A stretch of DNA of 64,000 nucleotides from an uncultured Chloroflexia bacterium (GCA_963842805.1 CAWJIA010000013.1:123-64122), one strand, 5' to 3'. Shown: positions 1 through 27,310, counted from the first letter of the stretch. Notes: generated from the sequence alone by a model not told the origin. Translations and numbers: made by a program.

Positions 1-727
1 CACCTGCTGGCCGACAAGGTAACACCGGCTGTGGCCCGCATGAGGGAGACCGTGCTGGGCATCTCGCTCTTCTCCCCCTTCCCCTTCCACAGCGTCTACT
101 CTATCGAAGACCATAAGAAACATATGGACTGGATCAAGCATATAAATAGAAAGACCCTGGTATCGGCCAAGGTGTCGACGCCCATCGACGTGGACATGGT
201 GGCCGTGGGCAGCTACTCCGCCGGGGCGCACATAGTGCACCTGGACGGCGGCTACGGCGGAACGGGCGCGGCGCCGGATATCGCCAAGAAGAATATCGCC
301 ATGCCCATCGAGTACGCCATCGTCAAGGTCCACGACTTCCTGGTCAAGGAGGGCGTCCGCGATAAGGTCACACTGATCGCCAGCGGGGGCATACGCAACT
401 CCCACGATATAGCCAAGGCCATAGCCCTGGGGGCCGACGGCGTGGTGGTCGGGACCGGCGAGCTGGTGGCGCTGGGCTGCCTGCGCTGCAGCCGCTGCGA
501 GAGCGGACGGGGCTGCCCGCGGCATCGCTACCACGGACGAGGAGCTGGCCGAACAGATCAGCGTGGACTGGGGCTCGCAGAGGATCATCAACCTCTACAA
601 CGCCTGGCGCATCGAACTGGTCAATATTTTAAGGAAGTTGGGACTGCGCAGTGTGGCCGAGCTGCGCGGACGCACAGACCTGCTGATGCACCTGGATTAC
701 ACCAACCAAGCGGAGCCAAAGAAATGA
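1..727 (+). pseudogene. Glutamate synthase FMN/Fe-S domain protein (archaeal-type GltB domain 2). It is 5'-partial at the window edge and its reading frame is broken near 517-521.
   Basis: Frame 1 from base 1 reads ...SLFSPFPFHSVYSIEDHKKH...DGGYGGTGAAP...LIASGGIRNSHD...GCLRCSRCESGRGCP, then becomes nonsense. Homology continues in frame 2 from 521 (GIATTDEELAEQ...LRSVAELRGRTDLLMH...) and ends at TGA 725-727, overlapping the next ATG as ATGA. The 1116-aa ORF 31..3381 in the track is a read-through artefact of this break. Confidence 0.8.
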
Positions 728-3381
728 ACGGCGATAGGATAGAACAGCTTCTGCTTTCCCGCAAAAACCTCTCTGAATCGCTCCAGCCGGCCACGCCGGA
801 CAGGAAGCTGGAGGAGGAGGGCGGCTGCGGCGTTGTGGGCTTCTGCTGCACCGAGCCGGTGGCAGCCAGGCATATTTACGAGCCTTCCAGGCAGATGCAC
901 AACCGCGGCAACGGCAAGGGCGGCGGCATCGCTGCGGCGGGCCTTAAACCGGAACAGCTCGGCGTGAGCCGGGATGTGCTGGAGAACTATTACATGCTGC
1001 ACGTGGCCTTCCTGGACCCATCCGTACGCCCGGCCCTGGAGAAGAAATATATCACCCCGCATTTCGAGATCAGCTCGTCTCAGAAACTGGAATCACTGGA
1101 CGACTGGACCAAGGTGGAGGGCCTGGAGGCCAAGCCGCCCGAGGTCTGGCGCTATTTCGTGCGCGTGAAAAAGGCGGTGCTCGATTCATTCATTGCCGCC
1201 AACAAGTTCACCGGCCTGAGCCTGAACGAGGCGGAAGCCGAGTTCATCAACCAGAACAGCATCAAGCTCAACCAGGAATACTATGCCTCGCTGGGCGAGC
1301 AGAAGGCCTTCGTCATGTCCGAGGGCAAGAATATCATGATACTCAAGGTGGTAGGCTACGCCGAAGCCATCGTAAAATATTATAAGATAGAAGAGCTCTG
1401 CGCCCATGTGTGGATCGCCCACCAGCGCTTCCCCACCAAAGGACGCGTCTGGCATCCGGGCGGCGCCCATCCCTTCGGCGGCATCAACGCCGCGCTGGTG
1501 CATAACGGCGACTTCGCCAACTATTACTCGGTATGTGAATACCTGGCCGAGCGGCACATCTACCCGCAGTTCCTGACCGATACCGAGGTCTCCATCCTGA
1601 TGTTCGACCTGCTGGAACGGGTCTACCACTATCCGCTGGAATACATCATCGAGGCGCTGGCGCCCACTTCGGAGCTGGACTTCGACCGCCTCCCCACGGA
1701 CAAACAACGCATTTACAGGGCTGTACAGGCAGCGCACATCCACGCCTCGCCCGACGGCCCCTGGTTCTTCATCATCGCCCGCAGCATACCCGAAAAGAAG
1801 AAATTCCAGCTTATGGGCATCACGGATACCGCCATGCTGCGTCCGCAGGTATTCGCCTTCTGCGACGGCGAGGTGCAGGTCGGCCTGATCGCCTCGGAAA
1901 AACAGGCCATCGACGCCACGCTGCTCAGCCTGCACAAAGACGACCCGCGCATCTGCCCCATCGCCGACCGTTACTGGAACGCCAGGGGCGGCAGCCATAC
2001 CGACGGCGGCGCCTTCATCTTCGACCTGGAGAGGAACGCCCAGGGCAAGCTGCGCATGACCTGCACCGACAAATTCGGCACGGCCGTCCCCATGCCTTCC
2101 GGCACCGAGGCCTGCGATTTTACAGCCACCACAAGCAAATCCAACGGCAATATCGGCGGCAGCATCCAGAAGTGCTTCGAGACCGGGAGCGCAGCCTCCG
2201 TTTTCGATTATGTCTCGGTCAATATGAAGAACTGGTCCTACGATGATATACGCACGGCCTGCGGCGCTATCGTGGAGATGGCAGCCGACGCCCGGAACAC
2301 GGCCGCAGCCATAGAGGCGCTCACGTTGCTCAACGACCGCAGGTACGCCTGCGGCGCCAAGAAACGCAATCATATTTTATACATAGTTCGCGAGGCCCTC
2401 AGGCGGCTGTTCGGCGGCCTGCCCAAACTGGATTCGGCCGATAGCGAGAACACCTACCGCCTGATAGATCATGCTACCCGTGACCTGCTGCGTGCCCCGC
2501 ACGGTTCCGAGACTACGCTGGTCATCAACGTAACAGGCTTCGACGCGGAGGGAGACCACTGCGATGCCTCGCTGCTGATGGACGCCTACCTCAAGGGCTG
2601 GAAGCATTTCATCAGCTATAACTGCATCGGGCAGCGCTTCATCGGCTGTGGTCTGGGGCCGGAGACCGAGGGCGTGACTATCGATGTATATGACAGCTCC
2701 GGTGATTACCTGGCCTCAGGTATAGACGGCCTGACCATTACGGTGCACGGCAATGTCCAGGACCAGGTGGGACAGATCATCAAGACCGGCAAACTCGTGA
2801 TACACGGGGATTTCGGACAGACCTTCATGTACGGCGCCAAGGGCGGCAGCGTCTATGTCATGGGCAACGGGGCGGGACGGCCGCTCATCAACTCGGTGGG
2901 AAGGCCCAAGGTGGTCATCAACGGCACCTGCCTGGACTTCCTGGGAGAGTCATTCATGGCTGGCGACGTGCTCAACGGCGGGGGCTTCGTCATCCTTAAC
3001 GGTGTCAAGTTCGATGACGAGGGCAAAATGGTTCCTTTACAGGAACCCTATCCCGGCAGCAACCTGTTCTCGCTGGCCTCGGGCGGCGCCATCTACATCC
3101 GCGATCCGGAGCAGCGTCTGGTCTGGCAGCAACTGAACGGCTGCGGGTTCTTCCGGTTGACGGACGCCGAGTGGGACCTGATACTGCCCTACCTTGAGGA
3201 AAACGAGCGTTTATTCGGCATCAAGGTAGAGGAGCTGCTGACGGTCAATGGCCGGCGTATGGAACCTTCGGCCGTCTACCGCAAGGTGGCACCCGTCATG
3301 GTAGCCGCCCTGGGCAAGAAAATGGCTGAGCCCGTCAGCGAGGTCGAGGCGCTTAGTGTATCGGACGGCGAATCAGCATAA
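724..3381 (+). CDS. Fused class-II (Ntn-type) glutamine amidotransferase-like domain plus GXGXG domain (GltB domains 1 and 3) glutamate synthase-related protein
   Basis: ATG 724 has GGAG at 712-715. The N-terminal region carries GGCGVVGF...HNRGNGKGGG and WIAHQRFPTKG...HNGDFANY. The C-terminal region has GXGXG beta-helix repeats (ITVHGNVQDQVGQ, VYVMGNGAGRPL, FLGESFMAGD). Confidence 0.8.
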   Translation: MNGDRIEQLLLSRKNLSESLQPATPDRKLEEEGGCGVVGFCCTEPVAARHIYEPSRQMHNRGNGKGGGIAAAGLKPEQLGVSRDVLENYYMLHVAFLDPSVRPALEKKYITPHFEISSSQKLESLDDWTKVEGLEAKPPEVWRYFVRVKKAVLDSFIAANKFTGLSLNEAEAEFINQNSIKLNQEYYASLGEQKAFVMSEGKNIMILKVVGYAEAIVKYYKIEELCAHVWIAHQRFPTKGRVWHPGGAHPFGGINAALVHNGDFANYYSVCEYLAERHIYPQFLTDTEVSILMFDLLERVYHYPLEYIIEALAPTSELDFDRLPTDKQRIYRAVQAAHIHASPDGPWFFIIARSIPEKKKFQLMGITDTAMLRPQVFAFCDGEVQVGLIASEKQAIDATLLSLHKDDPRICPIADRYWNARGGSHTDGGAFIFDLERNAQGKLRMTCTDKFGTAVPMPSGTEACDFTATTSKSNGNIGGSIQKCFETGSAASVFDYVSVNMKNWSYDDIRTACGAIVEMAADARNTAAAIEALTLLNDRRYACGAKKRNHILYIVREALRRLFGGLPKLDSADSENTYRLIDHATRDLLRAPHGSETTLVINVTGFDAEGDHCDASLLMDAYLKGWKHFISYNCIGQRFIGCGLGPETEGVTIDVYDSSGDYLASGIDGLTITVHGNVQDQVGQIIKTGKLVIHGDFGQTFMYGAKGGSVYVMGNGAGRPLINSVGRPKVVINGTCLDFLGESFMAGDVLNGGGFVILNGVKFDDEGKMVPLQEPYPGSNLFSLASGGAIYIRDPEQRLVWQQLNGCGFFRLTDAEWDLILPYLEENERLFGIKVEELLTVNGRRMEPSAVYRKVAPVMVAALGKKMAEPVSEVEALSVSDGESA

Positions 3382-3395
3382 AGAAGAGAAGAGCT

Positions 3396-3962
3396 ATGAC
3401 GATAAAGATTAAGAAACAGTCGGGAAAAGGCCTCAGGCAGACGGTGGAAGAAATATCCGGCGTCGACATGAGCTTATGTTACCAGTGCAAGAAATGCGCC
3501 AGCGGGTGTCCTGTCACCAAATACACCCAGTCGCCACCCTCGGAGATTATCCTTCGCCTGCACCTGGGCGCCGGGGATGAGCTGCTGGAGAGCGACCTGG
3601 TCTGGATGTGCCTGTCCTGCGAGACCTGCTATGGGCGCTGCCCCATGGAAATCAACATGCCGGCGGTCATCGACGCCCTGCGCAGCCTGGCTATAGAGAA
3701 AGGGGCCAAATCGCCCAAGGGCGACATGCCGCTCTTCAACCGCAAATTTCTCGACACGGTTAAAGCCTACGGCCGTTCCTACGACCTCTCCATGATCATG
3801 GGCTATAAGCTGGGCTCCGGCTCACTGATGAATGACGTGGAGAAATTCCCGTCTATGCTGGCCAAAGGCAAGATGGCCTTGCTCCCGCCTTCGGGCGCCG
3901 AGAAAAAGGTCGTTAAGAGGATCTTCGACCGTTCCAAACAGGCTAAAGGAAAGAAAAAATGA
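3396..3962 (+). CDS. hdrC: Heterodisulfide reductase subunit C-like 4Fe-4S dicluster protein
   Basis: It has two ferredoxin-type Cys motifs (CYQCKKCASGCP and CLSCETCYGRCP). It starts 14 nt after the previous stop and overlaps hdrB by 4 nt. Confidence 0.85.
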   Translation: MTIKIKKQSGKGLRQTVEEISGVDMSLCYQCKKCASGCPVTKYTQSPPSEIILRLHLGAGDELLESDLVWMCLSCETCYGRCPMEINMPAVIDALRSLAIEKGAKSPKGDMPLFNRKFLDTVKAYGRSYDLSMIMGYKLGSGSLMNDVEKFPSMLAKGKMALLPPSGAEKKVVKRIFDRSKQAKGKKK

Positions 3963-4837
3963 GATACGCATATTATCCGGGCTGCTCGGCCCATTCCACG
4001 GCGCGTGACATGCACGAATCGGCGGACGCCGTTGCACGCCTGCTGGGCATCGACCTGGTAGAGATGAAAGGCTGGTCCTGCTGCGGAGCTACCTCAGCTC
4101 ACCAGACCGACCGTGTCATGGCCGCTTCACTGCCGGCCGCTAACCTGCTGCTGGCCAAAGAGATGGGGCTGGATACCGTCGTCACCTGCGCAGCCTGCTA
4201 CAGCCGCATGAAGACCGCCAACCACGAGATTACTTCTTCGGCGGACATGCGCGCCGCAGTGGCCGACGCCGTGGGACAGGCTTATGACGGCTCGGTCAAA
4301 GTACGCCATTTCGTGGAGATTTTATTAGAGGACGTCGGCATCGATAAGCTGCGCAAGCGTTTCAAAAAGTCCCTCAACGGACTCAAGGTCGCCAGCTACT
4401 ACGGGTGCCTGTTGGTACGCCCCGGCAATGTTACGCATTTCGACGACCCGGAGAACCCCACCTCGCTGGATAGGCTGGTGACGGCCATGGGCGGGGAAGG
4501 CATCGACTGGCCGCACAAGGTCGAGTGCTGCGGCGGCGGGCTCAACCTGACCCGCACCGACGTAGCGGTCAAGCTCTCAGCCTGCATCGTAGAGATGGCG
4601 GCCGCCTCCGGAGCGGACTGCATCGCCGTAGCCTGCCCCATGTGCCAGGCCAGCCTGGACCTCCGGCAGAAGGATATCGACGCGGCCACGGGCAAAAAAC
4701 ACCATATGCCCGTGCTTTATATCACCCAGCTCCTGGGCCTGTGCCTGGGCATCCCCGAAAAAGAGCTGGGACTCAACCGGCTGATGGTATCTCCGGCGGG
4801 AGTATTGAAGGCTTTGCAGCCTGCATCCTCACATTAA
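3959..4837 (+). CDS. hdrB: Heterodisulfide reductase subunit B (two CCG domains)
   Basis: The sequence shows YYPGCS...WSCCGATSAH and YYGC...VECCGGGLN...CPMCQASL, which is the duplicated CX(n)CCGX(m)CXXC signature. Confidence 0.9.
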   Translation: MRYAYYPGCSAHSTARDMHESADAVARLLGIDLVEMKGWSCCGATSAHQTDRVMAASLPAANLLLAKEMGLDTVVTCAACYSRMKTANHEITSSADMRAAVADAVGQAYDGSVKVRHFVEILLEDVGIDKLRKRFKKSLNGLKVASYYGCLLVRPGNVTHFDDPENPTSLDRLVTAMGGEGIDWPHKVECCGGGLNLTRTDVAVKLSACIVEMAAASGADCIAVACPMCQASLDLRQKDIDAATGKKHHMPVLYITQLLGLCLGIPEKELGLNRLMVSPAGVLKALQPASSH

Positions 4838-4856
4838 GTTTAAGAAGGTTACCGAT

Positions 4857-7800
4857 ATGGATAAGACTACTGATAAAAAGACCGGAGCGGTGCTGGTACA
4901 GGGCGGCGGCATAGCCGGCATTCAGGCTGCCCTCGACCTGGCCAACTCAGGCTTCAAAGTCTATTTGATAGAGCGTTCACCGGCCATCGGCGGCATGATG
5001 TCCCACCTTGACAAGACCTTCCCCACCGGGGACTGCGCCACCTGCATCGTCTCACCCAAGCTGGTGGAATGCGCACGCAACGTTAATGTGGAGATACTGA
5101 CGCTTTCCGAGCTGGTGGATTTAGAAGGCCAGCCGGGCAATTTCAAGGCCACCGTCAAACGCTACCCGCGCTACGTGGACGAGGTGAAATGCACCGCCTG
5201 CGCACAGTGCACCGACGCCTGCCCGGTCAACGTGCCCAACCGCTTCGACCGCAACATGAGCACGCGCAAGGCCATCGCCCAGTACTACGCACAGGCCACA
5301 CCCAATATCTTCGGCATACTCAAGAACGGGCACGCACCCTGCAAGGTGACCTGCCCGGCCAATATAAACGTACAGGGCTATATTCAGCTCATCAAGAAGA
5401 AGGAATACGTCAAGGCCGTTAATTTGATCAGGGAGAGGAATCCACTCTCAGCCATTTGCGGACGTGCCTGCAACCATCCCTGCGAGGCCGCATGCACACG
5501 CAATTCCGTCGACTCGCCGGTCGCTATCAGGCTGCTCAAGAGGTTTGCCTCCGATAAGGAGATGGAGATGGTTGAGGCAGGCCTTATCGCACTGCCGGAG
5601 GAAAAGACCCCTCCCGCCAGCGCAAAGAAGGTCGGGATAATCGGCGCAGGGCCCGCCGGCCTCACGGCCGCAGCGGATCTGGCGGACCGCGGCTTCGCGG
5701 TGACTGTGTATGAAGCCGCACCGGCGGCGGGCGGCATGCTGCGCTGGGGTATTCCGGAATACAGGCTGCCCAAGAATATACTCGATTATGAGATTGAGCT
5801 GATCAGGCGCAAGGGCGTCACATTTAAATATAACTGCAATGTCGGCAGGGATATCACCCTGGAGCAGATACGCCGTGACAACGAGGCGGTATTTGCAGGA
5901 GTAGGCGTGCAGACCAGCCGCAAGCTGGGTGTGGAAGGCGAGGACAAAGCCGGCATCAATTACGGCGTGGAGTTCCTCAGACAGGCCGGGGACAAAGATA
6001 ATCCCCCAGAGGTCAAGGACAGGGTCATCGTGATTGGCGGCGGCAACGTCGCTGTGGACGTGGCCCGCACAGCCCTGCGCCTGGGCGCAGGACATGTCGA
6101 TATGGTCTCACTGGAGCAGAGGCAGGAGATGCCCGCACTGCCCGAAGAGGTAGAGGCAACGGTTGAAGAAGGAATCACGGTGCATAACGGCTGGGGACCC
6201 CAGCGCATACTGGGCAACGGCAAGGTCGAAGGTATCGAATTTAAGCTCTGCACCAGCGTTTTCGACAAAGAAGGGCGCTTTAGCCCCACTTACGATACAT
6301 GCACCCTTACCGTACTCAAGGCAGACCAGGTGATCATCGCCATCGGCCAGTCGCTGGACAAAGGGTTCCTGGATAACAAAGATGTGGCCGTCGAGCGGGG
6401 CGTGCTGAAGGCCGACCCGGTCACCCTCGAGACATCGGTCAAAGGGCTTTTCGCCGGGGGCGACAGCGTGTCAGGCCCGGCTTCCATCATACAGGCCGTG
6501 GCTGCCGGCAAACGCGCAGTTGAATCCATCGAACGCTACATGAAGGGCGAGGACATGAGGCCCGCCCGTTTCAGCGACGGCGTAAGGCCGGTCCCGGAGG
6601 AATTGCTCCCCACCACGAACGATAAGGAGAAGAAAGCCAGGGAGGTGCCCGGCAATATAGCCGCCGAAGAGAGGAATCATAATTTCGTGGAAGTCGAGGG
6701 CGGCCTGAGCGAAGAGCAGGCGCTGGCGGAATGCGAGCGCTGCCTTAACTGCGCCATGTGCTCGGAGTGCCAGGAATGCGTGGCTGCCTGCGAGCAGAAC
6801 GCTATAGACCATTTTATGCTGGAAAAGACTGTCCGGCTGGATGTGGGCTCGGTTATTCTGGCCCCCGGTTTCGAAGAGTTCGCCGCCGAGAGAAAGGGCG
6901 AGTTCGGCTTCGGCCGCTATCCCAACGTGATGACCAGCGTCCAGTTTGAGAGGATGCTCTCCGCCTCCGGCCCCTTCGAAGGGCACGTCATCAGGCGGTC
7001 GGATGGGGAAGAGGCCAGGCGTGTCGCATGGATACAGTGCGTCGGCTCGCGCGATTCCAAATGCGGTAACGACTACTGTTCATCGGTCTGCTGCATGGTC
7101 TCGACCAAGCAGGCACTGATTGCTTCGGACCATTCACCCGACCTGCAGGCTTCGGTTTTCTATATGGACATACGCGCCCACGGCAAGGACTTCGACCAGT
7201 ATTACGAGCGCGCCAGGAATCAGGGAAATATCAATTATATTAAGAGCATGCCCTCCAGGGTGGTGCAGGTGCCCGGGTCGAAAGACCTGCGCCTGCAATA
7301 TTATGATGAATCAGGCAAGCTGGCGGAAGCTGATTTCGACCTGGTGGTGCTGTCGGTTGGCATGGAGCCTGGATCGGCGGCCAGGACCAGTGCAGGGCGT
7401 ATCGGCATCGACCTGAATGAATACGGTTTCTGCGCCACCGACCGCTTTAGTCCGCTTTCGACCTCCAAACCGGGCGTATTCGTAGCCGGGGCCTTCCAGG
7501 AGCCCAAAGACATCCCCGAGACGGTCACGCAGGCCAGCGCTGCTGCATCCATGTCAATGGAGCTGCTGGCATCGGCCCGCAACTCGCTGGTTACCAAGCG
7601 CGTGTACCCCAACGAGCATGATGTAACCGATGAGGAGCCGAGGATCGGCGTCTTCATCTGCCACTGCGGCAAGAACATCGCCTCGGTAGTGGACGTAGAG
7701 CATGTAGCTGAGGTGGCTGCGCAGCAGCCCAACGTGGTCTTCGCCACACACACCATGTATACCTGCGCCGACTCCAATTTGAATAACATCCGCGACATGA

Positions 7801-9335
7801 TCCATGAGCACCGGCTCAACAGGATCGTGGTCGCATCCTGCACTCCCAGGACACACGAGCCCATCTTCCGCGACACACTGCGCGAGGCGGGGCTTAATCC
7901 CTATCTCTTCGAGCTGGCCAATATCCGGGACCAGTGCTCATGGGTACACTCGGCAGAGCCCGAAAAGGCTACGCAAAAGTCCATCGAATTGATGAAGATG
8001 TCCGTGGCACGCTCCCGCCTTCTTTCACCTCTCATCGGCACCTCCTTTGCCGTCAACCAGACGGGCATGGTTATCGGGGGCGGCGTCAGCGGTATGACCG
8101 CCGCTCTGGCGCTGGCCAACCAGGGTTTCAAGGTGCACCTGGTAGAGAGATCGGAGAGGCTGGGCGGAAATGCCCTGGACCTGAACTATACGCTGGAGCA
8201 CGACGACGTCCAACGCTTCGTCTCAGAACTGGCCGGACAGATCGAAAGCCATGAAAACATCACCCTGCACATGGAGACCGAGGTCTCCGCAGTGGCTGGC
8301 TTCATAGGTTCTTTCGAAGTTACCCTTTCCAGGGAAGGCCTGGACAAGGAAGTAAAATGCGGGGCCATCATAGTAGCTACCGGCGCCGGACCGGCAGCGA
8401 CCCAAGAGTTCCTCTACGGGAAGTCCGACAGGGTTCTCACTCAGGTGGAGCTGGAGAAAAAGCTGGCCAAACAGGCTATGCCTCTTAAGGGACGTAATAT
8501 AGTCATGATACAGTGTGTGGGCTCACGCAACGACGAGAGGCCGTACTGCAGCCGCATCTGCTGTTCGATGGCGGTCAAGAACGCCCTCAAGATCAAGCAG
8601 CAGGACCCTACCGCTGATGTTTATGTGTTATACAGGGATATCCGGACCTACGGCTTCAGGGAGAAATATTACAAGCAGGCGCGTGAGGCGGGCGTGGTAT
8701 TCATCCGCTATGAGCGAAACACGCCGCCGGTGGTATCCGACGGTGGCAGTCTGACGGTTACAGTCAACAGCCCCGACTTCCCGGAAGCCGTGGAGATAGA
8801 GGCCGACAACCTGGTGCTCAGCACCGCAGTGGATGCGCCCAAGGACAGCCGCCGCCTGGCCGACATGCTCAAGGTGCCGCTCAACGCCGACGGCTTCTAC
8901 GTAGAAGCGCACTTGAAGCTGCGCCCGGTGGATTTCACTACCGAAGGCATTTTCCTGTGCGGCCTGGCCCATTCACCCAAGATGATGGACGAGAATATCT
9001 CGCAGGCGCGTGCCGCTGCAGCCAGGGCCGCCACCGTGCTTTCCAAGACCCTGCTCGAGGTGGGAGTGCAGGTCTCGCAAGTCGACCAGCAGAAATGCAT
9101 CTCCTGCATGACGTGCACCAAGGTCTGCCCCTATGGAGCTCCTACTGTGAACGCCGACAGGAAGGCCGAGATCATCGCAGCCAAATGCATGGGCTGCGGC
9201 ATCTGCGCCGCCGAATGCCCGGCCTGCGCCATACAGTTGAACCATTTCGAATCGAGGCAGTTCAAGACCATGCTGGACGAGCTTTTCAGTGTCCATGAGG
9301 AAGAAACTACTGAGCCGGTCGGAGCGCCGCAGTAA
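4857..9335 (+). CDS. hdrA: Giant tandem HdrA-like flavoprotein with an embedded GltD/NfnB-type NAD(P)H-binding module
   Basis: The N-terminus has GGGIAGIQAALDLA...TGDCATCI. The insert has GRACNHPCEAAC, IIGAGPAGLTAAADLA...GGMLRWGIPEYRLPK and VIGGGNVAVDVART. Further HdrA motifs are CVGSRD...YCSSVCC. A second HdrA unit follows (GVFICHCGKNI, VASCTPRTHE, IGGGVSGMTAALALA, CVGSRN...YCSRICC) with a terminal 2x[4Fe-4S] motif. Confidence 0.9.
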   Translation: MDKTTDKKTGAVLVQGGGIAGIQAALDLANSGFKVYLIERSPAIGGMMSHLDKTFPTGDCATCIVSPKLVECARNVNVEILTLSELVDLEGQPGNFKATVKRYPRYVDEVKCTACAQCTDACPVNVPNRFDRNMSTRKAIAQYYAQATPNIFGILKNGHAPCKVTCPANINVQGYIQLIKKKEYVKAVNLIRERNPLSAICGRACNHPCEAACTRNSVDSPVAIRLLKRFASDKEMEMVEAGLIALPEEKTPPASAKKVGIIGAGPAGLTAAADLADRGFAVTVYEAAPAAGGMLRWGIPEYRLPKNILDYEIELIRRKGVTFKYNCNVGRDITLEQIRRDNEAVFAGVGVQTSRKLGVEGEDKAGINYGVEFLRQAGDKDNPPEVKDRVIVIGGGNVAVDVARTALRLGAGHVDMVSLEQRQEMPALPEEVEATVEEGITVHNGWGPQRILGNGKVEGIEFKLCTSVFDKEGRFSPTYDTCTLTVLKADQVIIAIGQSLDKGFLDNKDVAVERGVLKADPVTLETSVKGLFAGGDSVSGPASIIQAVAAGKRAVESIERYMKGEDMRPARFSDGVRPVPEELLPTTNDKEKKAREVPGNIAAEERNHNFVEVEGGLSEEQALAECERCLNCAMCSECQECVAACEQNAIDHFMLEKTVRLDVGSVILAPGFEEFAAERKGEFGFGRYPNVMTSVQFERMLSASGPFEGHVIRRSDGEEARRVAWIQCVGSRDSKCGNDYCSSVCCMVSTKQALIASDHSPDLQASVFYMDIRAHGKDFDQYYERARNQGNINYIKSMPSRVVQVPGSKDLRLQYYDESGKLAEADFDLVVLSVGMEPGSAARTSAGRIGIDLNEYGFCATDRFSPLSTSKPGVFVAGAFQEPKDIPETVTQASAAASMSMELLASARNSLVTKRVYPNEHDVTDEEPRIGVFICHCGKNIASVVDVEHVAEVAAQQPNVVFATHTMYTCADSNLNNIRDMIHEHRLNRIVVASCTPRTHEPIFRDTLREAGLNPYLFELANIRDQCSWVHSAEPEKATQKSIELMKMSVARSRLLSPLIGTSFAVNQTGMVIGGGVSGMTAALALANQGFKVHLVERSERLGGNALDLNYTLEHDDVQRFVSELAGQIESHENITLHMETEVSAVAGFIGSFEVTLSREGLDKEVKCGAIIVATGAGPAATQEFLYGKSDRVLTQVELEKKLAKQAMPLKGRNIVMIQCVGSRNDERPYCSRICCSMAVKNALKIKQQDPTADVYVLYRDIRTYGFREKYYKQAREAGVVFIRYERNTPPVVSDGGSLTVTVNSPDFPEAVEIEADNLVLSTAVDAPKDSRRLADMLKVPLNADGFYVEAHLKLRPVDFTTEGIFLCGLAHSPKMMDENISQARAAAARAATVLSKTLLEVGVQVSQVDQQKCISCMTCTKVCPYGAPTVNADRKAEIIAAKCMGCGICAAECPACAIQLNHFESRQFKTMLDELFSVHEEETTEPVGAPQ

Positions 9336-9347
9336 AGAAGTTTAGAA

Positions 9348-9791
9348 ATGAACACGAATAATAAAGAAATCACCGTCGTTGCCTTTTGCTGCCTGTATTG
9401 TGCCTACGCGGCCGCCGACCTGGCCGGCTCCATGCGCCTTCAGTATCCGGCCAATGTCAGGATCGTTCGCACGCCCTGCACGGGCAGGCTGGAAGTCGAG
9501 TTTTTCCTCAAGGCCTTCGAGAGCGGCGCCGATGGAGTGCTGGTGGCCGGCTGCGAAGAGGGCAGTTGCCATTTCAAGGAAGGCAACCTGGTGGCCAAGC
9601 GCCGCGTTAACTACGCGCGCAAATATTTGCAGGAGAGCGGCCTTGAGCCGGAGCGCCTGCGTATGGTCAACGTCAGCTCCGCCATGGCGCGCCAGCTTAC
9701 CGACCACATTAAAGATATGGTTGAGACGGTGCGCAAGCTGGGTCCCAGCCCGCTCAACAAAGCCAAAAGACGACAGGAGATAAAGTCATGA
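9348..9791 (+). CDS. mvhD: MvhD-type (methyl-viologen-reducing hydrogenase delta subunit-like) Fe-S protein
   Basis: The sequence VAFCCLYCAYAAADLAG...YPANVRIVRTPCTGR...GADGVLVAGCEEGSCHF shows the canonical MvhD Cys pattern. Confidence 0.9.
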   Translation: MNTNNKEITVVAFCCLYCAYAAADLAGSMRLQYPANVRIVRTPCTGRLEVEFFLKAFESGADGVLVAGCEEGSCHFKEGNLVAKRRVNYARKYLQESGLEPERLRMVNVSSAMARQLTDHIKDMVETVRKLGPSPLNKAKRRQEIKS

Positions 9792-10457
9792 TAGTCGCAG
9801 AGAGAAAAACCATCCCCGAAATAGTCGACATACTCAAGGGGCATAAAAACATACTGGTGCTGGGATGCGGCACCTGCGTTACCGTGTGCCTGGCCGGCGG
9901 CGAGCGCGAGGTCAGCATTATGGCCTCGGCACTGCGCATCGCTTCCCGCGCCCAGAGCCTGGGTTTCAAGGTCAGCGAGCTGACTATCGAACGTCAATGC
10001 GACAACATCTTTATCGAACAGGCCGCCGAAGCCATTGAGAAGGCCGACGCCGTGTTATCCCTGGGCTGCGGGGCAGGCGTACAGGCCATAGCCGAGCGTT
10101 TCGCCAAGAAGCCGGTCTACGCTGGGCTCAATACCAAGTTCCTGGGCATCCTGGAGGAGAGGGGCACCTGGACCGAGAAATGCGCCCAGTGCGGCGAGTG
10201 CGTTCTGGCCGATTACGGCGGCATCTGCCCCGTAACGCGCTGCGCCAAGCATCTGCTTAACGGCCCCTGCGGAGGTTCGCAGTGAGGACCGATGTGAAGT
10301 GAATCCCGAGCGTCCCTGTGCCTGGCAGTTGATTTATAAGAGGCTCAAGGATATCGGGCAGCTCGATAAACTGGAGAAGATATCCATGCCCAAGCAGTGG
10401 GGCGCCAGCTTGAGCGGGGGGCCGCGCGTTATCATCCGCGAAGACCACCGGATTTGA
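9788..10457 (+). pseudogene. metV: MetV-like protein (methylene-THF reductase C-terminal-domain family). The frame is broken at the in-frame TGA 10283-10285.
   Basis: ORF 9788..10285 ends ...CAKHLLNGPCGGSQ*. Family-like sequence (EDRCEVNPERPCAWQLIYKRLKDIGQLDKL...) continues in the +1 frame from 10284 to TGA 10455-10457. The two parts together give about 222 aa. Confidence 0.75.
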
Positions 10458-10478
10458 TTTCGAACGTCGTAAAAACCG

Positions 10479-11207
10479 CTATTTGGTAGCCACGTAAACT
10501 GCGGCGGCGCCGAAGAACAGCCTTTTGAAAGTAGCCTGTTTGAATCCCGCCTTAATGAGGAACTCCTGAGCCTCTTCCGCCGAGAAGAAGTGCTCGGCCG
10601 ACTCCACCAGGTATTTGTAGGCTGCTTTATTTCCGGATATCAGCAGGCCCGAGAGGAAGACCCACAGCCGCAGGTAGAGGTGGTCCAGCTTGCGGATTAA
10701 GGCTGATTTCGGCTGGCTGCTTTCCACGATAACGTATTTCCCGCCCGGCCTGAGCACGCGCAGCACCTCATCCAGGTATTCCTGAACGAGCGGGTTTTTA
10801 TAGGTCAGGTTACGGAAGGCGAACGAGATGCCCACACAGTCGAACCAGCCATCTGGGAAGGGGAGTTGGGCTATCTCGGAGTTGATGAACTTGATATTCT
10901 TGCCTCTGGCCAACTTCCCGGCTTTTTCGGCAGCCTTGTCCAGCATGGGCTGGCTGTAATCGACGCCTATGATCTCCGGATTATAGTCTGCCAGCCGGGC
11001 GATGGCGATCATCAGGTCGCCCGTGCCGCAGCAGATATCCAAAATGCGCTCCGGCCATGAGGAGAGGCATGCCAGGACGGCCTGCTTCCTCCAGCTCGTA
11101 TCCATTCCCAGAGTGATGACATGGTTGATCAGGTCATAACGTTCGGGGATAGCGGTGAATATGCGGTACAGCGGTTTGGGTTTCTGAGGGGGCTGATTTT
11201 CCGCCAT
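10479..11207 (-). CDS. ubiE: Demethylmenaquinone/ubiquinone methyltransferase (UbiE/MenG family)
   Basis: Key motifs are YRIFTAIPERYDLINHVITLG, ILDICCGTGD (the SAM motif) and VLRPGGKYVIVE. Confidence 0.85.
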   Translation of the reverse strand: MAENQPPQKPKPLYRIFTAIPERYDLINHVITLGMDTSWRKQAVLACLSSWPERILDICCGTGDLMIAIARLADYNPEIIGVDYSQPMLDKAAEKAGKLARGKNIKFINSEIAQLPFPDGWFDCVGISFAFRNLTYKNPLVQEYLDEVLRVLRPGGKYVIVESSQPKSALIRKLDHLYLRLWVFLSGLLISGNKAAYKYLVESAEHFFSAEEAQEFLIKAGFKQATFKRLFFGAAAVYVATK

Positions 11208-11216
11208 ACGTATTTC

Positions 11217-12129
11217 CTAGACCTTGAAAATCCCCGAAAGGATATAGCCGATGCCCGTCAGAAGCTGGGTCAGCAGCACCACCATCACATTGTTCGCCAT
11301 GGCCGGCATCAGTTTGCCCATATCTTCCGATTTGAACGAGCCATGGATGGCCTTTATAGCCAGGGGCAGCGTGAATATTGCTATCAGGCAGAATACCGGC
11401 ATGGCTTTGAATATCACTGCGCCGATGATCCACACATAGACGAGCACCGTGAAAACGGTGTAAAAAATAGCCGCATTGCGCCTTCCCATGGTTATGGGCA
11501 GCGTTTTCCTGCGACCTATCTTATCGGCCTCGACATCCGGAAACTCATTGAGCAGCAGCAGGTTGTGCACGAGGAATCCCGGAGGGTATGGCCGCGATCA
11601 AGGCCGGCAAGGTGTACATGCCGGTTTGAGCGAAATAGATACCCAGCACGGGCAGGACGCCCAGGCCCAACCCGGGCGACCATTCAGGCCAGTATCCCTG
11701 CAGGATCAGCGGGCTGTAAAAAATAATGCATATGGCTGCGATTACAATCAGGGGCAGCAGCATCCAGCCTTTGCCCCACACGAAATAAGCGCCGATGAAG
11801 ACATCTATGATAAGGCAGATAATCCCGATCCAGAGCGCCTCGCTGGGCTTGATCAGTCCGGCCTTGAGCATGCCGCTCCCGCCGCTGAAGGGTGTCACAT
11901 CAGTAGCCTTATCCACACCGCTTTTATAGTCGAAGTAATCGTTGAGGGTGTTGCAGGCGGCGTGGGCCAAAACAAGCCCTATACCGGCGATGATGGCATT
12001 GGCAAGATTGAAATAGCCGTCATACCAGGCCATGCAGGTGCCCAATATAGCCAGGACAACCGCCAGGATTAAAAACTGCGGCCTCGTCTCCAGAAAATAT
12101 AGCTTTAATTTCATCTTGTCCTCCGACAT
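11217..12129 (-). pseudogene. menA: 1,4-dihydroxy-2-naphthoate prenyltransferase-like (UbiA family), frame broken near 11574-11580
   Basis: The N-terminal ORF 11545..12129 carries NTLNDYFDYKSGVD. The C-terminal ORF 11217..11570 carries LLLLNEFPDVEADKIGRRKTLPI. Together they form one protein of about 300 aa if one base in the GGGATT stretch (minus strand) is skipped. Confidence 0.8.
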
Positions 12130-12235
12130 AGGAACGTACGATTATAGCATAAATAAACGGCCGCCGAGACCGATATTTGCTTGACCGCAATATGATGGAA
12201 TGTTACGCTTAAGTTGTAGTTAAAGGGGTGCTGTG

Positions 12236-13033
12236 ATGATCGACGAAAAGGCCATTGAAAATGTAAGGCAATACGGTTGTGCGGTGGGTACCGGTGAGAG
12301 GAAAAGACGGATACTGGTAGACGAGATAGGTTTTCCCATCAATAAAAAAGCGGAATACGCCATTATTGCAGGGTGCTTTCAACCGGAAGGGATGCCGCAC
12401 GTCCTGCACGCCTTCAAGAAGGTGCTGGACCATTTAAGGGTGGACTATACGCTGCTTGATAAAGAGTACTGCTGCGGCTGGCTGGCTTTCGGCCAGATGG
12501 CGGTGATAACCAAAAATGAAGAGGACATAGCCAGGTTCAAAGAGCTTTCCCCGGAGTTTCTGGCAGAGAACTTCAAGCAGGCCAAAGAGCTGGGCGCCCG
12601 GTCCATTGTACTCTTTTGCAGCGCCTGCGAGCCCAATTACACCAACTACAAGGGTTTACCCGACCTTGAGGTTATTACCTACCCCCAGCTTATCGACCGC
12701 TATTTCCAGGGCGGCAGGTTGAAAAGGAAAATCGATTTCTACGCGGGCTGCTATCGTTTCCGCCGCCGCATAACCGATATCCCTGTAGACACCAGTGCCG
12801 CCATGAGTATCATGGACAAGATCGAAGGACTCGAGGTAAATCCTTTGGACGGCAAACTATGCTGCAACATACCGCCGCATATGGAACAACTGGCGGGTTC
12901 GATCAAGAGCGATACGGTAGTTAACATCTGCACCGGCTGTTACTACGCTCTCAAAGCCAAGCTGGGCGGGAATCCAAATATCGACGTTAAAATGCTGCCC
13001 GAAATAGTGTGGGAAGCAATAGAGGGACAATAA
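12236..13033 (+). CDS. CCG-domain (HdrB/GlpC-like cysteine-rich) Fe-S oxidoreductase subunit
   Basis: It contains IAGCF...EYCCGW...FCSACEP and YAGCY...KLCCNIPP...CTGCYYAL. The RBS AAAGGGG lies 7 nt upstream of ATG 12236. Confidence 0.7.
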   Translation: MIDEKAIENVRQYGCAVGTGERKRRILVDEIGFPINKKAEYAIIAGCFQPEGMPHVLHAFKKVLDHLRVDYTLLDKEYCCGWLAFGQMAVITKNEEDIARFKELSPEFLAENFKQAKELGARSIVLFCSACEPNYTNYKGLPDLEVITYPQLIDRYFQGGRLKRKIDFYAGCYRFRRRITDIPVDTSAAMSIMDKIEGLEVNPLDGKLCCNIPPHMEQLAGSIKSDTVVNICTGCYYALKAKLGGNPNIDVKMLPEIVWEAIEGQ

Positions 13034-13063
13034 TACCCGGTTTAATATCAGGCAATCCCATAT

Positions 13064-13999
13064 CTAAAACGGAAGTTTTTCAACTTTAATATCCGGCAAC
13101 AGTCTCTCGACATCTTCCTTATGGCATAGCTCGGTGCCCGGCGCCAGGGTAGCGGCCGTGCCGCAGGCAGCGGCAAGGCGTGAGGCTTCCTCCAGGCTAC
13201 CGCCCTGGCTAAGCTTGAGCACCAGGCCAGCCACCGCCGAGTCACCAGCGCCCACCGTGCTCAAGATCTGCACATCGGGCGGCACCACTTTATAGACGGC
13301 GTCTTTGTCGGCGATGATCATGCCGTCCCGGCCCCTTGAAATACAGACTATTTTGATACCGCTGCCGACCAGCGTTTTTACAGCGTAAATTATATCTTCT
13401 TCGGTCTTAAGCTCCGTGCCGAGCAGGCCCTGCGCCTCCCTGACATTGGGCTTGATGATATCCGGCGTGGCCTTCACTCCCTCTTTAAGCCACTGGTCGG
13501 CCGAGTCCAGCACCGTCACTATCCCCTGGCTTTTCATCTTATCTATCAGCACATGGTAGATATTGTCAGGGACCCCCGGCGGCACGCTGCCGGCAAAAAC
13601 CATGTAGCGGGGACGGCGCTTGAGATGGGTGATCTTATGGACCAGCTTCTTCAGTTCGCCGGGAGATATCTCAGGTCCGGGTGCAGATATTCTGGTCTGC
13701 TGGCGGGTCTTGAGGTCGGTAATTATGAAATTGCTCCTGATCTCCAGCTTGATCGGCGTAAAATCGTAGGGCACATCCTTCTGCTTCAAAATGGTCTTCA
13801 GAACCCCTCCGTCAAGGCCCCCCAGGAACCCGTAAGCCATGGTATCGCCGCCCATCTGGCAGACGACCCGAGACACATTTATCCCTTTGCCGCCGGGCAT
13901 ATATGAGAAGCTTACCCAGCGGTTAGTATCATCGAGCACCAGGTTTTCTACTGCTACATGCCTGTCCAGCGACGGGTTCATCGTCACTGTCGATATCAC
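13064..13999 (-). CDS. PfkB-family sugar-phosphate kinase (1-phosphofructokinase / tagatose-6-phosphate kinase type)
   Basis: Motifs are MISTVTMNPSLD, PGGKGINVSR and TVGAGDSAVAG. The GTG start directly abuts the pyk stop. Confidence 0.85.
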   Translation of the reverse strand: MISTVTMNPSLDRHVAVENLVLDDTNRWVSFSYMPGGKGINVSRVVCQMGGDTMAYGFLGGLDGGVLKTILKQKDVPYDFTPIKLEIRSNFIITDLKTRQQTRISAPGPEISPGELKKLVHKITHLKRRPRYMVFAGSVPPGVPDNIYHVLIDKMKSQGIVTVLDSADQWLKEGVKATPDIIKPNVREAQGLLGTELKTEEDIIYAVKTLVGSGIKIVCISRGRDGMIIADKDAVYKVVPPDVQILSTVGAGDSAVAGLVLKLSQGGSLEEASRLAAACGTAATLAPGTELCHKEDVERLLPDIKVEKLPF

Positions 14000-15451
14000 T
14001 TAGATCTTCTCCACTTTAAGCATATTGGTCGTGCCAGCCTTACCGATGGGGATACCCGCCGTCACCACGACCAGGTCCCCTTTTTGTACACAACCCAACT
14101 TTTTAGCCGCCCGCGCAGCCTGCGTAAACATATTCAATATGGACCTCGGCTCGGGCACCTTAAGGGCAATCACTCCCCAGGTCAGGGATAACTGCCTTTG
14201 CGTAGATTCGTCAGGCGTAATCGCCAGTATCTGCGTACGCGGCCTGTATTTCGAGACCCGCCTGGCCGTGCTGCCCGAGGCTGTATAAGCAATAACGGCT
14301 TTGGCGCCGAGCTGGCGCGCAGTATGGCAGGCGGCGTAGCTGATGGCGTCATCAGTAAGCGGCTGAAGGTCTTTGCCTTTGCTGGCAAAGTTCTCGTCAT
14401 AAGGCAGGGCGCCCTCCGCCTCTACAGCTATGAGGGACATCATTTTGACCGCCTCCACGACGTAATGTCCAATCGCCGTCTCCTCCGAAAGCATGGTCGC
14501 GTCCGCCCCGTCGAAGATGGCGTTAGCCACATCCGTAGCCTCTGCACGCGTAGGCATGGGCGAATCAACCATAGACTCGAGCATCTGCGTGGCCACGATA
14601 ACCGGCTTGCCGGCATGGTTACTTTTGCAAATCAGGTCTTTCTGGACGACAGGGACTTTCTGTATGGGTATCTGAACGCCCAGGTCGCCGCGCGCCACCA
14701 TTATGCCGTCGGCCGCCGCCAGTATCTCATCGAAGTTATTCAGCCCCTCCACCCTCTCGATCTTGGCGATGATCTTGGCCAGGGAACCCTTGTCCCGCAG
14801 GAACCGCCTTACTTCAATGACATCGTTGGCCTTGCTTACAAAGGAAAGCCCCACGAAATCGATTTCGTGTTTTATAGCGAAATAGAGGTGCTGCCAGTCT
14901 TCCTCGGTTACAGCATCCACGTCCCAGGTCACGCCCGGGACGGTTACTCCCTTGTTATCGAAAAGCCTGCCGCCTGTGATGACTTTGCACTTAACATCAT
15001 GATGGCTGATGGACACCACTTCCAGCTTGATGAGACCGTCATCCAGGAAAATGTCCTGTCCAAGCTTCACATGATTCGGGAGCTCGGGGAGGTCCACGGA
15101 GACCTGCGTCTCATCGCCCAGTACATCCCTGGTCGTCAATATAAATTCGGCGCCGTCTTTGAGCTTTATCCCGCCCTTCTTGACTTTGCCCGTGCGGTCC
15201 TTAGGGCCGGGCAGGTCGAGCAAGAAGGCCAGCGGCAATTTGAGCTTCTGCGCTTCCTGCCGCAGCGTTTCGATATAATGCAGATGCTCGTCCGGTGTAC
15301 CGTGCGAGGCGTTAATGCGCGCCACGTTCATGCCCGCCTCAAGTAACTGCCTTACAACCGGGGCAGAGTTGCTGGCCGGGCCGATAGTACAGACTATTTT
15401 CGTTTTACGCGCCGGCACGAATTCCGGAGCTGGTTTTTTACTTCTTGGCAT
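14000..15451 (-). CDS. pyk: Pyruvate kinase
   Basis: Motifs are KTKIVCTIGPAS, NVARINASHG, MVARGDLGVQIP and ATQMLESM. I place the start at ATG 15451 (MPRSKK...), 10 nt after the upstream stop, rather than at the longer track ORF. Confidence 0.9.
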   Translation of the reverse strand: MPRSKKPAPEFVPARKTKIVCTIGPASNSAPVVRQLLEAGMNVARINASHGTPDEHLHYIETLRQEAQKLKLPLAFLLDLPGPKDRTGKVKKGGIKLKDGAEFILTTRDVLGDETQVSVDLPELPNHVKLGQDIFLDDGLIKLEVVSISHHDVKCKVITGGRLFDNKGVTVPGVTWDVDAVTEEDWQHLYFAIKHEIDFVGLSFVSKANDVIEVRRFLRDKGSLAKIIAKIERVEGLNNFDEILAAADGIMVARGDLGVQIPIQKVPVVQKDLICKSNHAGKPVIVATQMLESMVDSPMPTRAEATDVANAIFDGADATMLSEETAIGHYVVEAVKMMSLIAVEAEGALPYDENFASKGKDLQPLTDDAISYAACHTARQLGAKAVIAYTASGSTARRVSKYRPRTQILAITPDESTQRQLSLTWGVIALKVPEPRSILNMFTQAARAAKKLGCVQKGDLVVVTAGIPIGKAGTTNMLKVEKI

Positions 15452-15461
15452 TTTGGAATCC

Positions 15462-21204: not shown

Positions 21205-21245
21205 GTCGATAGTACGTATTGTTTTATTGTTATGGAGCATAGAAT

Positions 21246-21575
21246 ATGGAAGTAAATCCCAACCACATTTTTGAATTGCAGGCGGAGATGCTAAGCGTTC
21301 TTTCCAATCCAAAACGTCTCATGATACTCAAAGTACTGGGCAAAGGGGAAAAAACAGTGGGAGAAATTGCTGTGCAGGTTGGCATCGAGATGCAGAACGC
21401 ATCTCAACATCTCCGTATCATGAAGGCCCGTGGGATAGTGACGGCCAGAAGGGATGGTCAGACGGTCTATTATGAGCTTACGACCCCTATCTTCGCGGAA
21501 TGCTGTGAACTAGTGCGGAAGGCCATCGTGGAAGACCTGGAAAAAAGAAGAGCGCTCATACAGGATATTAAATAG
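21246..21575 (+). CDS. ArsR/SmtB-family transcriptional regulator
   Basis: The sequence LSVLSNPKRLMILKVL...TVGEIAVQVGIEMQNASQHLRIMKARGIV...DGQTVYYEL is typical of the family. Confidence 0.85.
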   Translation: MEVNPNHIFELQAEMLSVLSNPKRLMILKVLGKGEKTVGEIAVQVGIEMQNASQHLRIMKARGIVTARRDGQTVYYELTTPIFAECCELVRKAIVEDLEKRRALIQDIK

Positions 21576-21602
21576 AATTGAATTATCACGGGAGGTTAAA
21601 GG

Positions 21603-22270: not shown

Positions 22271-22291
22271 GGTGCGCTAAGCAGAACTGTC

Positions 22292-27307: not shown

Positions 27308-27310
27308 TTC

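Follow-up and report, generated by a model that had tools for sequence, protein, structure and literature searches.

A glutamate synthase-type operon with Hdr, MvhD and MetFV-like subunits in an uncultured Chloroflexia bacterium: probable Hdr-type electron input into nitrogen assimilation

The first 10,457 nucleotides (nt) of a 64,000-nt stretch of DNA from an uncultured Chloroflexia bacterium (GCA_963842805.1 CAWJIA010000013.1:123-64122; the whole stretch is called the window below) carry glutamate synthase-type (GltB-type) genes packed together with hdrC, hdrB, hdrA, mvhD and metV. The question raised by this locus is whether it encodes a glutamate synthase (GOGAT), a methylene-tetrahydrofolate (methylene-THF) reductase (MTHFR) similar to the MetFV-HdrABC-MvhD enzyme of Moorella thermoacetica, or both. 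An earlier interpretation of the DNA alone (called here the sequence-only reading) set two possibilities side by side: either the Hdr/MvhD module serves the GltB-type proteins rather than an MTHFR, or the locus is a decaying MTHFR operon. From the gene content, motifs and gene context described below, we consider it probable that the operon encodes a multi-subunit GOGAT involved in nitrogen assimilation, in which an Hdr-type module would oxidise nicotinamide adenine dinucleotide phosphate (NADPH).

The features present at this end of the window are the following, FMN and FAD standing for flavin mononucleotide and flavin adenine dinucleotide:

1-727, plus strand: 3' third of FMNb, the GltB FMN/synthase subunit (PF01645, E-value 3e-48), cut by the left edge
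724-3381, plus strand: GATase/GXGXG fusion, 885 residues (Pfam GXGXG and GATase_6)
3382-3395, plus strand: 14-nt spacer AAGAAGAGAAGAGC, purine-rich, containing only a Shine-Dalgarno-like purine run
3396-3962, plus strand: hdrC, 2x[4Fe-4S] subunit (Pfam Fer4_8/17; NCBIfam HdrC models below cut-off)
3959-4837, plus strand: hdrB, two complete CCG motifs, i.e. non-cubane [4Fe-4S] sites (Pfam CCG twice; NCBIfam HdrB, E-value 3e-62)
4857-9335, plus strand: hdrA of the "HdrL" type, 1492 residues (Pfam; NCBIfam HdrA2/HdrA and GltD-family models)
9348-9791, plus strand: mvhD2, the operon's second mvhD copy, [2Fe-2S] electron-transfer subunit (Pfam FlpD, E-value 3.5e-49)
9788-10457, plus strand: metV (DUF5981/MTHFR_C, PF12225, NGPCGG motif), start overlapping the end of mvhD2; 1-nt insertion at 10279
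10479-11207, convergent to the operon: ubiE

The map of the open reading frames (ORFs) and the translations bear out the gene order, overlaps and spacings described in the sequence-only reading. The FMNb stop codon (725-727) overlaps the ATG at 724 of the fusion gene in an ATGA, hdrC and hdrB overlap (3959/3962), and gaps of 19 and 12 nt precede hdrA and mvhD2, respectively. Within the operon, consecutive genes either overlap or are separated by 31 nt at most, both in the window and in the related contig L087 described below. No promoter-like or terminator-like site was detected by a consensus scan at the gltB/hdrC junction (3381/3396), as the single operon proposed earlier supposes.

Where does this operon begin? 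L087, a contig encoding an identical fusion protein and showing 99.0% DNA identity to positions 1-7020 of the window, carries upstream genes encoding an NrpR-family regulator, MvhD, MetF and FMNa, followed by an intact FMNb gene. A strong promoter-like site (11 of the 12 consensus positions, extended TG) lies 5' of nrpR. In L087 and in every relative, mvhD, metF and FMNa are located directly upstream of FMNb. The window starts inside the fourth gene of the operon and holds the downstream seven of its ten genes, the order in this species being (nrpR)-mvhD1-metF-like-FMNa-FMNb-GATase/GXGXG-hdrC-hdrB-hdrA-mvhD2-metV. The absence of metF noted in the sequence-only reading was an effect of the window edge, since L087 and the relatives carry this gene just beyond it.

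The frame breaks were located by alignment to L001, L007 and L087. It had been noted earlier that metV is broken, and this is the case in the window, but the break consists of a single 1-nt insertion (10279) which is not present in the relatives; when the extra base is removed, MetV has 222 residues and all 13 of the 13 conserved Cys. Another break had been missed: in FMNb, a 2-nt deletion at 522 changed (CG)3 into (CG)2 and shifted the frame from 1 to 2, whereas L087 is intact at this point. These breaks are not confined to the glt-hdr operon, since ubiA (11217-12129, minus strand, next to ubiE), when compared with L001 and L007, has an extra nucleotide at 11577 that divides it into two ORFs. 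A 6-nt in-frame deletion at 9771-9773, near the 3' end of mvhD2, which removes two residues from a Gln-rich tail as compared with L001 and L007, is probably neutral. L087 has a 1-nt deletion of its own in hdrA at about 11612 (corresponding to window position 6796), which truncates the gene at 649 residues. Because these indels are scattered over unrelated genes and differ between two assemblies that are 99% identical, they indicate assembly or strain noise and not operon decay; sporadic indels such as those occurring in both assemblies are typical of long-read contigs. The idea that the locus is the remnant of an MTHFR operon which has lost metF and is accumulating frameshifts was based on the broken metV and FMN-domain genes and on the lack of any metF within the window. 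It has become scarcely credible: metF lies just past the edge, the indels are single events without any counterpart in relatives, and the cofactor ligands are invariant over about 50-67 orthologues of each subunit.

Is the association between the gltB-type and hdr genes conserved? Relatives of the fusion protein were scanned across one genome per GTDB species and were found in at least 558 species genomes, and the ten proteins were placed by tblastn in the best 80 loci. In the gene orders given below, D stands for mvhD, F for metF (PF02219), a for FMNa, b for FMNb, X for the GATase/GXGXG fusion (GX), C, B and A for hdrC, hdrB and hdrA, and V for metV. The following arrangements were observed among the best 80 loci:

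D-F-a-b-X-C-B-A-D-V (complete ten-gene form): 36 loci
Forms truncated by contig ends and consistent with the complete form: about 17 loci
X-C-B-A-D-V-D-F-a (cyclic permutation, Desulfobacterales): 5 loci
D-V-F-a-b-X or D-a-b-X-V-F (without hdrCBA): 10 complete and 5 truncated loci
D-a-b-X (without hdrCBA and metVF): 4 loci (L073, L074, L076 and L082)

The conservation of the linkage in relatives, which the sequence-only reading had set beforehand as a test of its proposal, is thus borne out by the complete and truncated loci sharing the same order. Chance adjacency of the gltB-type and hdr genes was rejected in view of this synteny and of the conservation of the cofactor ligands. Genomes carrying the complete form are labelled Dehalococcoidia, Sedimentisphaerales/Phycisphaerae, Pirellulales, Verrucomicrobiota, Smithella, Syntrophorhabdus, Syntrophaceae, Leptospiraceae, Ignavibacteriae, Bacteroidetes and Anaeromyxobacter, and contiguous GltB-domain genes and hdrCBA-mvhD occur in the Chloroflexota, Planctomycetota, Verrucomicrobiota, Desulfobacterota, Bacteroidota, Ignavibacteriota, Spirochaetota and Myxococcota. 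Close homologues of the 885-residue fusion number in the thousands and bear the name "glutamate synthase", those at the top of the list being mostly from Dehalococcoidia; judging from their names, the 360 nearest proteins all originate from metagenome-assembled genomes or metagenomes, with no cultured host among them.

The identity between fusion proteins amounts to 65-72% across phyla and does not follow the taxonomy, as would be expected if the entire module had been transferred laterally: the operon appears to behave as a self-contained unit spread in this way. In the forms devoid of hdrCBA, the fusion is about 59% identical to that of the window. Every variant keeps MvhD and the three GltB-type genes. 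Since this is true of the variants lacking HdrCBA or MetVF, the invariant core consists of MvhD, FMNa, FMNb and the GATase/GXGXG protein, MetVF and then HdrCBA-MvhD being added modules. As regards the base composition, the G+C content is 0.58-0.62 in the operon (1-10500) versus 0.50-0.56 in the flanking 5 kb (10500-16000), a difference compatible with lateral acquisition.

The GltB-type proteins were then compared with known glutamate synthases. Full-length FMNb of the relatives has 526 residues, including an N-terminal 2x[4Fe-4S] domain, and the part present in the window is 98% identical to L001 FMNb. FMNb aligns with residues 857-1170 of Azospirillum brasilense GltS (E-value 5e-51), and it has the equivalents of the [3Fe-4S] ligands Cys1102/1108/1113 plus a fourth Cys. 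The motifs KxAQGAKPGxGG, SPxPxHxxYSIED and GGTGA are all present, as expected of the (beta/alpha)8 FMN/synthase domain of a GOGAT. Its paralogue FMNa (467 residues) lacks the KxAQGAKPGxGG...SPxPxHxxYSIED block and the GGTGA motif, and contains 12 invariant Cys, which belong to two motifs of the ferredoxin type and to one CxxCxxCx4C motif. Since the catalytic block is gone and the 12 cluster-binding Cys are kept, FMNa can be regarded as a putative non-catalytic iron-sulfur (Fe-S) subunit playing the role of a relay or scaffold.

In the fusion protein, Cys35 in the GGCGVVG motif is invariant and is preceded by a conserved 34-residue N-terminal extension. Together with Cys35, the HQRFPTKG, HNGDFAN and TDTE motifs are invariant in 49 sequences, in keeping with a class-II (N-terminal nucleophile, Ntn) amidotransferase. 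By analogy with A. brasilense GltB, the extension may be a propeptide which has to be removed to expose Cys35; judging from the different chain lengths in 6s6s and 1ea0, A. brasilense GltB itself sheds a 36-residue presequence. The GXGXG beta-helix domain of a GOGAT is recognised by PF01493 (E-value 3.7e-12). The AlphaFold 2 (AF2) model of the fusion (mean predicted local distance difference test, pLDDT, 74; predicted template modelling score, pTM, 0.79) has a beta-strand repeat region at residues 598-811, and its best fold match in the PDB is the GltS alpha subunit, followed by GlmS and PurF. Based on these motifs and on the model, the catalytic core is a predicted split and permuted GltB, in which an Ntn-type glutaminase is fused to the GXGXG beta-helix.

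Might these GltB-like proteins catalyse something other than glutamate synthesis? The same three domain families, in the form of separate subunits, build up the N-methylglutamate synthase MgsABC, and the operon might therefore be thought to carry out a similar reaction, or the amination of some other 2-oxoacid, tied to C1-folate metabolism via MetF, which would supply the link. The GATase domain is indeed divergent: it gives a weak Pfam match and has no match in a PDB sequence search with the fusion, where the only hit was FwdC, the closest relative of the GXGXG part by sequence. The glutaminase motifs and the propeptide-like extension nevertheless match those of GltS, and the electron-input Fe-S ligands and ferredoxin domain of FMNb imply a net reduction. 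We consider this kind of chemistry highly improbable, and the neighbouring genes discussed below also argue against it.

If the core is a GOGAT, which proteins deliver its electrons? The HdrABC part has the expected features, namely two CCG motifs in HdrB, 2x[4Fe-4S] in HdrC, and FAD and Fe-S sites in HdrA, although the NCBIfam scores of the Hdr subunits are all below the equivalog cut-offs. In HdrA, the N-terminus is followed by a GltD/NfnB-like insertion (FAD, NADPH and 2x[4Fe-4S]; approximately residues 153-642) and then by the rest of HdrA and, lastly, by another HdrA-like unit which ends in a ferredoxin domain. The matches of this protein in the PDB sequence search were HdrA (5odc, E-value 3e-179), NfnB (5jca) and GltD (6s6s); MetV found no match in that search, and the PDB holds no structure of a complex of this kind. 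The second Rossmann motif of the insertion is IGGGNVAVD. In PMC12054007, a GxGxxA Rossmann motif is taken to indicate NADP, and by this rule the GGGNVA sequence points to NADP. The cofactor Cys of HdrB, HdrC, both MvhD and MetV are all kept in 31-56 orthologues (8 invariant Cys in 55 HdrC and 11 in 52 HdrB sequences), and the cluster-binding Cys are likewise invariant in FMNa and FMNb. The coenzyme M-coenzyme B heterodisulfide (CoM-S-S-CoB) would not be an expected substrate of this HdrABC, since methanogenic cofactors are not expected in bacterial hosts.

The GltD/NfnB-like module of the operon is located inside HdrA, and the Hdr-less variants have none. The claim that this is the only GltD-type module is correct for this locus but not for the window, since another HdrA carrying such an insertion is encoded at 22292-26748. 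It belongs to a second Hdr-type locus (20674-28282 of the window), which comprises a DsrE-like gene (20674-21204), mvhD (21773-22270), the HdrA in the form of two ORFs of 908 and 577 residues (22292-25018 and 25015-26748) with an ATGA overlap, and a CCG-domain protein downstream (27311-28282). The HdrA of this locus is about 38% identical to that of the operon, and its split state may be natural for an HdrL of this kind or else due to a further indel.

Since metF is a member of the operon, its product had to be examined in turn. It belongs to the MTHFR family (PF02219), with scores below the cut-offs of the NCBIfam MTHFR models, and is annotated publicly as "methylenetetrahydrofolate reductase (NADPH)". 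In Escherichia coli MTHFR, Asp120, which corresponds to the Asp of the human "LRGD" motif, is reportedly important for folate binding and catalysis. The present species has Tyr at this position. Of the 43 Hdr-linked MetF, 31 have Tyr, five Phe, four His, one Ala and two Asp, whereas Asp is present in the MetF of all 14 Hdr-less loci. Glu28 is kept everywhere, and Gln183 (Q, H or S) is variable in the Hdr-linked MetF only; both Asp120 and Gln183 are kept in L066 and L069, two divergent loci of the Hdr-linked type. When the 150 representatives nearest to the query, out of 1.84 billion protein clusters, were compared, 118 had Asp in the column; Tyr was restricted to the very closest ones (62-66% identity) and to P0365 (41% identity), which shares the GYHQ motif of the query, and P0489 (34% identity). 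The Glu28-Asp120-Gln183 set of catalytic residues is thus incomplete in the Hdr-linked MetF. Since the Asp120 equivalent is lost, this protein is probably not a normal methylene-THF reductase, and its annotation is probably wrong. Other small clades of the MTHFR family also lack the Asp120 equivalent (P0359, P0372, P0378, P0398, P0432, P0436, P0437, P0449, P0467 and others), having "SGTHQT", "GRHQ", "GNHQ" or similar motifs instead, and there may be further MetF-like flavoproteins of a non-canonical kind.

These data bear on the possibility that the operon encodes two enzymes, a Moorella-type MetFV-HdrABC-MvhD methylene-THF reductase with a folate-active MetF and an archaeal-type GOGAT, which perhaps share the Hdr electron-input module and use both reductions as exergonic acceptors. 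All six Moorella-type subunit families are present, and they are encoded in one cluster in L087, L001 and the 36 complete loci, the window itself cutting off metF; MetV is perfectly conserved, and so is Glu28, while Asp120 and Gln183 are found in all the Hdr-less variants as well as in L066 and L069, and the public annotation is that of an MTHFR. On the other hand, the folate-binding Asp is replaced by Tyr, Phe or His in the clade of the window, and metF and metV are eight genes apart, contrary to the acetogen metVF. The GOGAT core and MvhD also occur without metVF in the four D-a-b-X loci. In addition, the cluster is found under the labels Sedimentisphaerales, Verrucomicrobiota and Bacteroidota, which are not known for the Wood-Ljungdahl pathway. 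We therefore take the two-enzyme alternative to be unlikely for the operon as a whole, while noting that it possibly suits the Hdr-less forms especially.

The neighbouring genes provide a further test of these alternatives. The flanking ORFs of all the loci were clustered, and the recurrent families were annotated. Those encoding the ammonium transporter Amt (9 loci), an NrpR-type regulator (6 loci, including the present species), the glutamine synthetase GlnA (6), the glutamine-dependent NAD synthetase NadE (5), a class-I amidotransferase (5), a GAF/sigma-54 activator (5), PII (4), CarA/CarB (4) and a canonical 1517-residue GltB (4) are recurrent. In 18 of about 81 loci, amt, glnA, PII, nrpR or canonical gltB is located at a distance of 6 kb or less, and the number rises to 27 when carAB, nadE, the class-I amidotransferase and the sigma-54 activator are also counted. 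This is the gene context expected for nitrogen assimilation. Wood-Ljungdahl families were absent from the set of recurrent neighbours and from the window as far as it was annotated (to about 56 kb), which speaks against a second, folate-reducing enzyme; likewise, no annotated methylamine-pathway gene recurs, contrary to what N-methylglutamate-like chemistry would lead one to expect.

The signals upstream of the operon were less informative. A sigma-54 -24/-12 element is present in only 8 of the 67 loci, five of them being near-identical Verrucomicrobiota sequences, and this is weak evidence. In these five (L014, L022, L024, L030 and L037), the identical sigma-54-like element TGGCAAACAAATGGCA is located about 175-200 nt 5' of mvhD1; the others are L013, L049 and L081, and the GAF-domain sigma-54 activator genes recur as neighbours in five loci other than these eight. 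Three consecutive Proton_antipo_M genes (Nuo/Mrp-type antiporter-like) were observed 0.5-5.4 kb upstream in L012 (Sedimentisphaerales) and L027 (Phycisphaerales), and a divergent Glu_synthase-domain protein of about 547 residues with a Cys-rich N-terminus is encoded upstream of the operon in L010, L016, L073 and L074. Two ORFs of 433 and 220 residues at 48.7-50.7 kb of the window were considered as possible duplicates of the L001 upstream genes because of their identical sizes, and were rejected: there was no blastn match, and the Pfam family of the 433-residue ORF differs from that of the L001 gene of the same size.

How might the Hdr-linked GOGAT function? In the proposed mechanism, NADPH would be oxidised at the GltD/NfnB-like insertion of HdrA, acting as a functional stand-in for the missing GltD subunit, and the electrons would pass through the Fe-S chain of HdrA, HdrC, MvhD, MetV and FMNa to FMNb and its FMN. 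There, 2-iminoglutarate, formed from 2-oxoglutarate and from ammonia arriving through a tunnel from the glutaminase site, would be reduced to glutamate. In the Hdr-containing version, the MetF-like protein might be a flavin relay or a regulatory subunit and would probably not be a methylene-THF reductase. The HdrA flavin might also bifurcate, one electron going downhill to the GOGAT and the other uphill to ferredoxin, according to the reaction 2 NADPH + 2-oxoglutarate + Gln + oxidised ferredoxin -> 2 Glu + 2 NADP+ + reduced ferredoxin. With a potential of roughly -0.12 V for 2-oxoglutarate + NH4+/glutamate, as against -0.32 V for NADPH, and with the additional energy of glutamine hydrolysis, the NADPH-driven GOGAT reaction is strongly exergonic. 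A bifurcation of the HdrA type would therefore be thermodynamically feasible, and we mention it as a tentative possibility, which is rather unlikely as things stand. It is slightly more doubtful still that the operon represents a new, laterally spread class of bifurcating GOGAT in anaerobes, with a MetF neofunctionalised and no longer reducing methylene-THF.

Several points weigh against the picture of an Hdr-linked GOGAT. The physical complex, the electron donor and the bifurcation are all deduced from gene content. The model does not account for the intact disulfide-type site of HdrB, for the MetF-like flavoprotein, or for the pairing of the Hdr-less core with a MetVF whose catalytic residues are intact; since the MetF of the Hdr-less variants keeps all these residues, it may be a real MTHFR. 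For the residue numbers, which follow E. coli MetF, the cross-check via the PDB alignment to human MTHFR covers the key column alone, and the loss of Asp120 in the Hdr-linked MetF was judged against the Hdr-less MetF and the 150 nearest cluster representatives. No canonical NrpR operator was found in L087 when the methanogen operator GGAA-N6-TTCC was searched. Lastly, a canonical full-length GltB (1517 residues) is encoded beside the operon in four loci: it follows metV at a distance of about 1.4 kb in Syntrophorhabdus (L023 and L028) and Syntrophobacterales (L036), and lies upstream of the operon in Desulfobacterales (L019). Since some genomes keep this enzyme alongside, the Hdr-linked complex is not simply the sole GOGAT.

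With these reservations, the proposal that the Hdr/MvhD module serves a GOGAT rather than an MTHFR gains from the conserved linkage, the nitrogen-related neighbours, the intact GOGAT motifs and the loss of Asp120, although the missing metF, which was one of its premises, was an error. Since this premise was wrong, the choice between GOGAT and MTHFR as it had been framed also fails: the metF-like gene and metV both belong, in conserved fashion, to this one operon. The decaying operon put forward as the other possibility does not fit the invariance of the cofactor ligands across dozens of genomes or the random scatter of the indels.

How does this operon compare with known systems? In the open-access papers and preprints searched, no GOGAT-Hdr-MetFV cluster is described and no link is made between GltB catalytic subunits and Hdr, MvhD or MetFV; as far as that literature goes, the operon appears to represent a means of driving nitrogen assimilation that has not been described before. 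If the complex functions as proposed, nitrogen assimilation would be tied directly to Hdr-type machinery, another type would join the small known set of electron-bifurcating enzymes, and anaerobes short of energy (in peat, sediments and aquifers) would recoup energy from a wasteful biosynthetic step. "metF-HdrABC" calls in metagenome-assembled genomes are already to be found in that literature. Proteins of this operon are liable to be read as a Wood-Ljungdahl MetF-HdrABC despite the Asp loss and the nitrogen context, which calls for caution in annotation, and if the operon is indeed a new class of bifurcating GOGAT with a neofunctionalised MetF, many such "MetF/HdrABC" markers would be misassigned in the metagenome-assembled genomes of Dehalococcoidia, Desulfobacterota, Planctomycetota and Verrucomicrobiota.

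Among the related systems, MgsABC is redox-neutral, has no electron-input subunits and occurs in a methylamine-utilisation context, and none of these features was seen here; no neighbour annotated as gmaS or mgdABCD recurs, and the Fe-S ligands and redox partners are extensive. The F420-dependent glutamate synthase FGltS of methanogens (PMC3448663, PMC9012536) provides a precedent for a GltB synthase domain relying on a non-GltD electron-input module, which is FrhB-like (F420H2) in that case, versus Hdr/MvhD/MetFV here. Large HdrA proteins into which a GltD/NfnB-like domain binding NAD(P)H is inserted, and whose genes precede mvhD as in the present operon, have been described as HdrL (an HdrA/glutamate-synthase-small-subunit fusion) in Desulfobacterium autotrophicum (PMC2702500) and as archaeal "type III HdrA" or HdrA9-11 (PMC12054007, PMC9012536). 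They were described beside dsr, fdh or other genes and none is linked to GltB catalytic subunits, unlike the HdrA studied here.

The archaeal-type split glutamate synthase GltB1-3, exemplified by AF_0952-4 of A. fulgidus (named in PMC8359953), resembles the present core in its split GltB domains and in its FMN subunit with an N-terminal di-cluster domain. Its GATase, FMN and GXGXG domains are separate polypeptides, whereas the present operon encodes a GATase-GXGXG fusion and never lacks a second, inactive subunit of the FMN-domain type, its GOGAT genes lying among mvhD, metFV and hdrCBA. No established electron donor is known for the archaeal split GOGAT, and the modules described here are a candidate electron-input system for enzymes of this type. 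With GltBD of A. brasilense (1ea0, 6s6s), the operon shares the Ntn glutaminase with a propeptide-like N-terminal extension before its catalytic Cys, an FMN/Fe-S synthase domain in which the Cys ligands are identical, the GXGXG beta-helix and a GltD-type FAD/NADPH/2x[4Fe-4S] module. It differs from GltBD in that the domains are split and permuted, the glutaminase and beta-helix being fused and the FMN domain being separate with an added ferredoxin domain; a degenerate FMN-domain paralogue replaces the central domain, the GltD-like module is inside HdrA, and six further redox subunits (HdrB, HdrC, two MvhD, MetV and the MetF-like protein) are encoded.

The methylene-THF reductase MetFV-HdrABC-MvhD of M. 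thermoacetica (Mock et al. 2014, summarised in PMC8515935 and PMC7325909) is made up of members of the six subunit families also found here, with an NAD(P)H site on HdrA and a proposed flavin-based bifurcation. The Moorella-type order hdrCBA-mvhD-metV-metF and the Wood-Ljungdahl neighbourhood are not those found here: metF and metV are located at opposite ends of the operon, three GltB-type genes and a second mvhD are included in the cluster, and the neighbours are nitrogen-assimilation genes. The second acceptor of the Moorella complex is given as unidentified in these summaries (PMC8515935, PMC7325909), and the cluster described here may bear on its nature.

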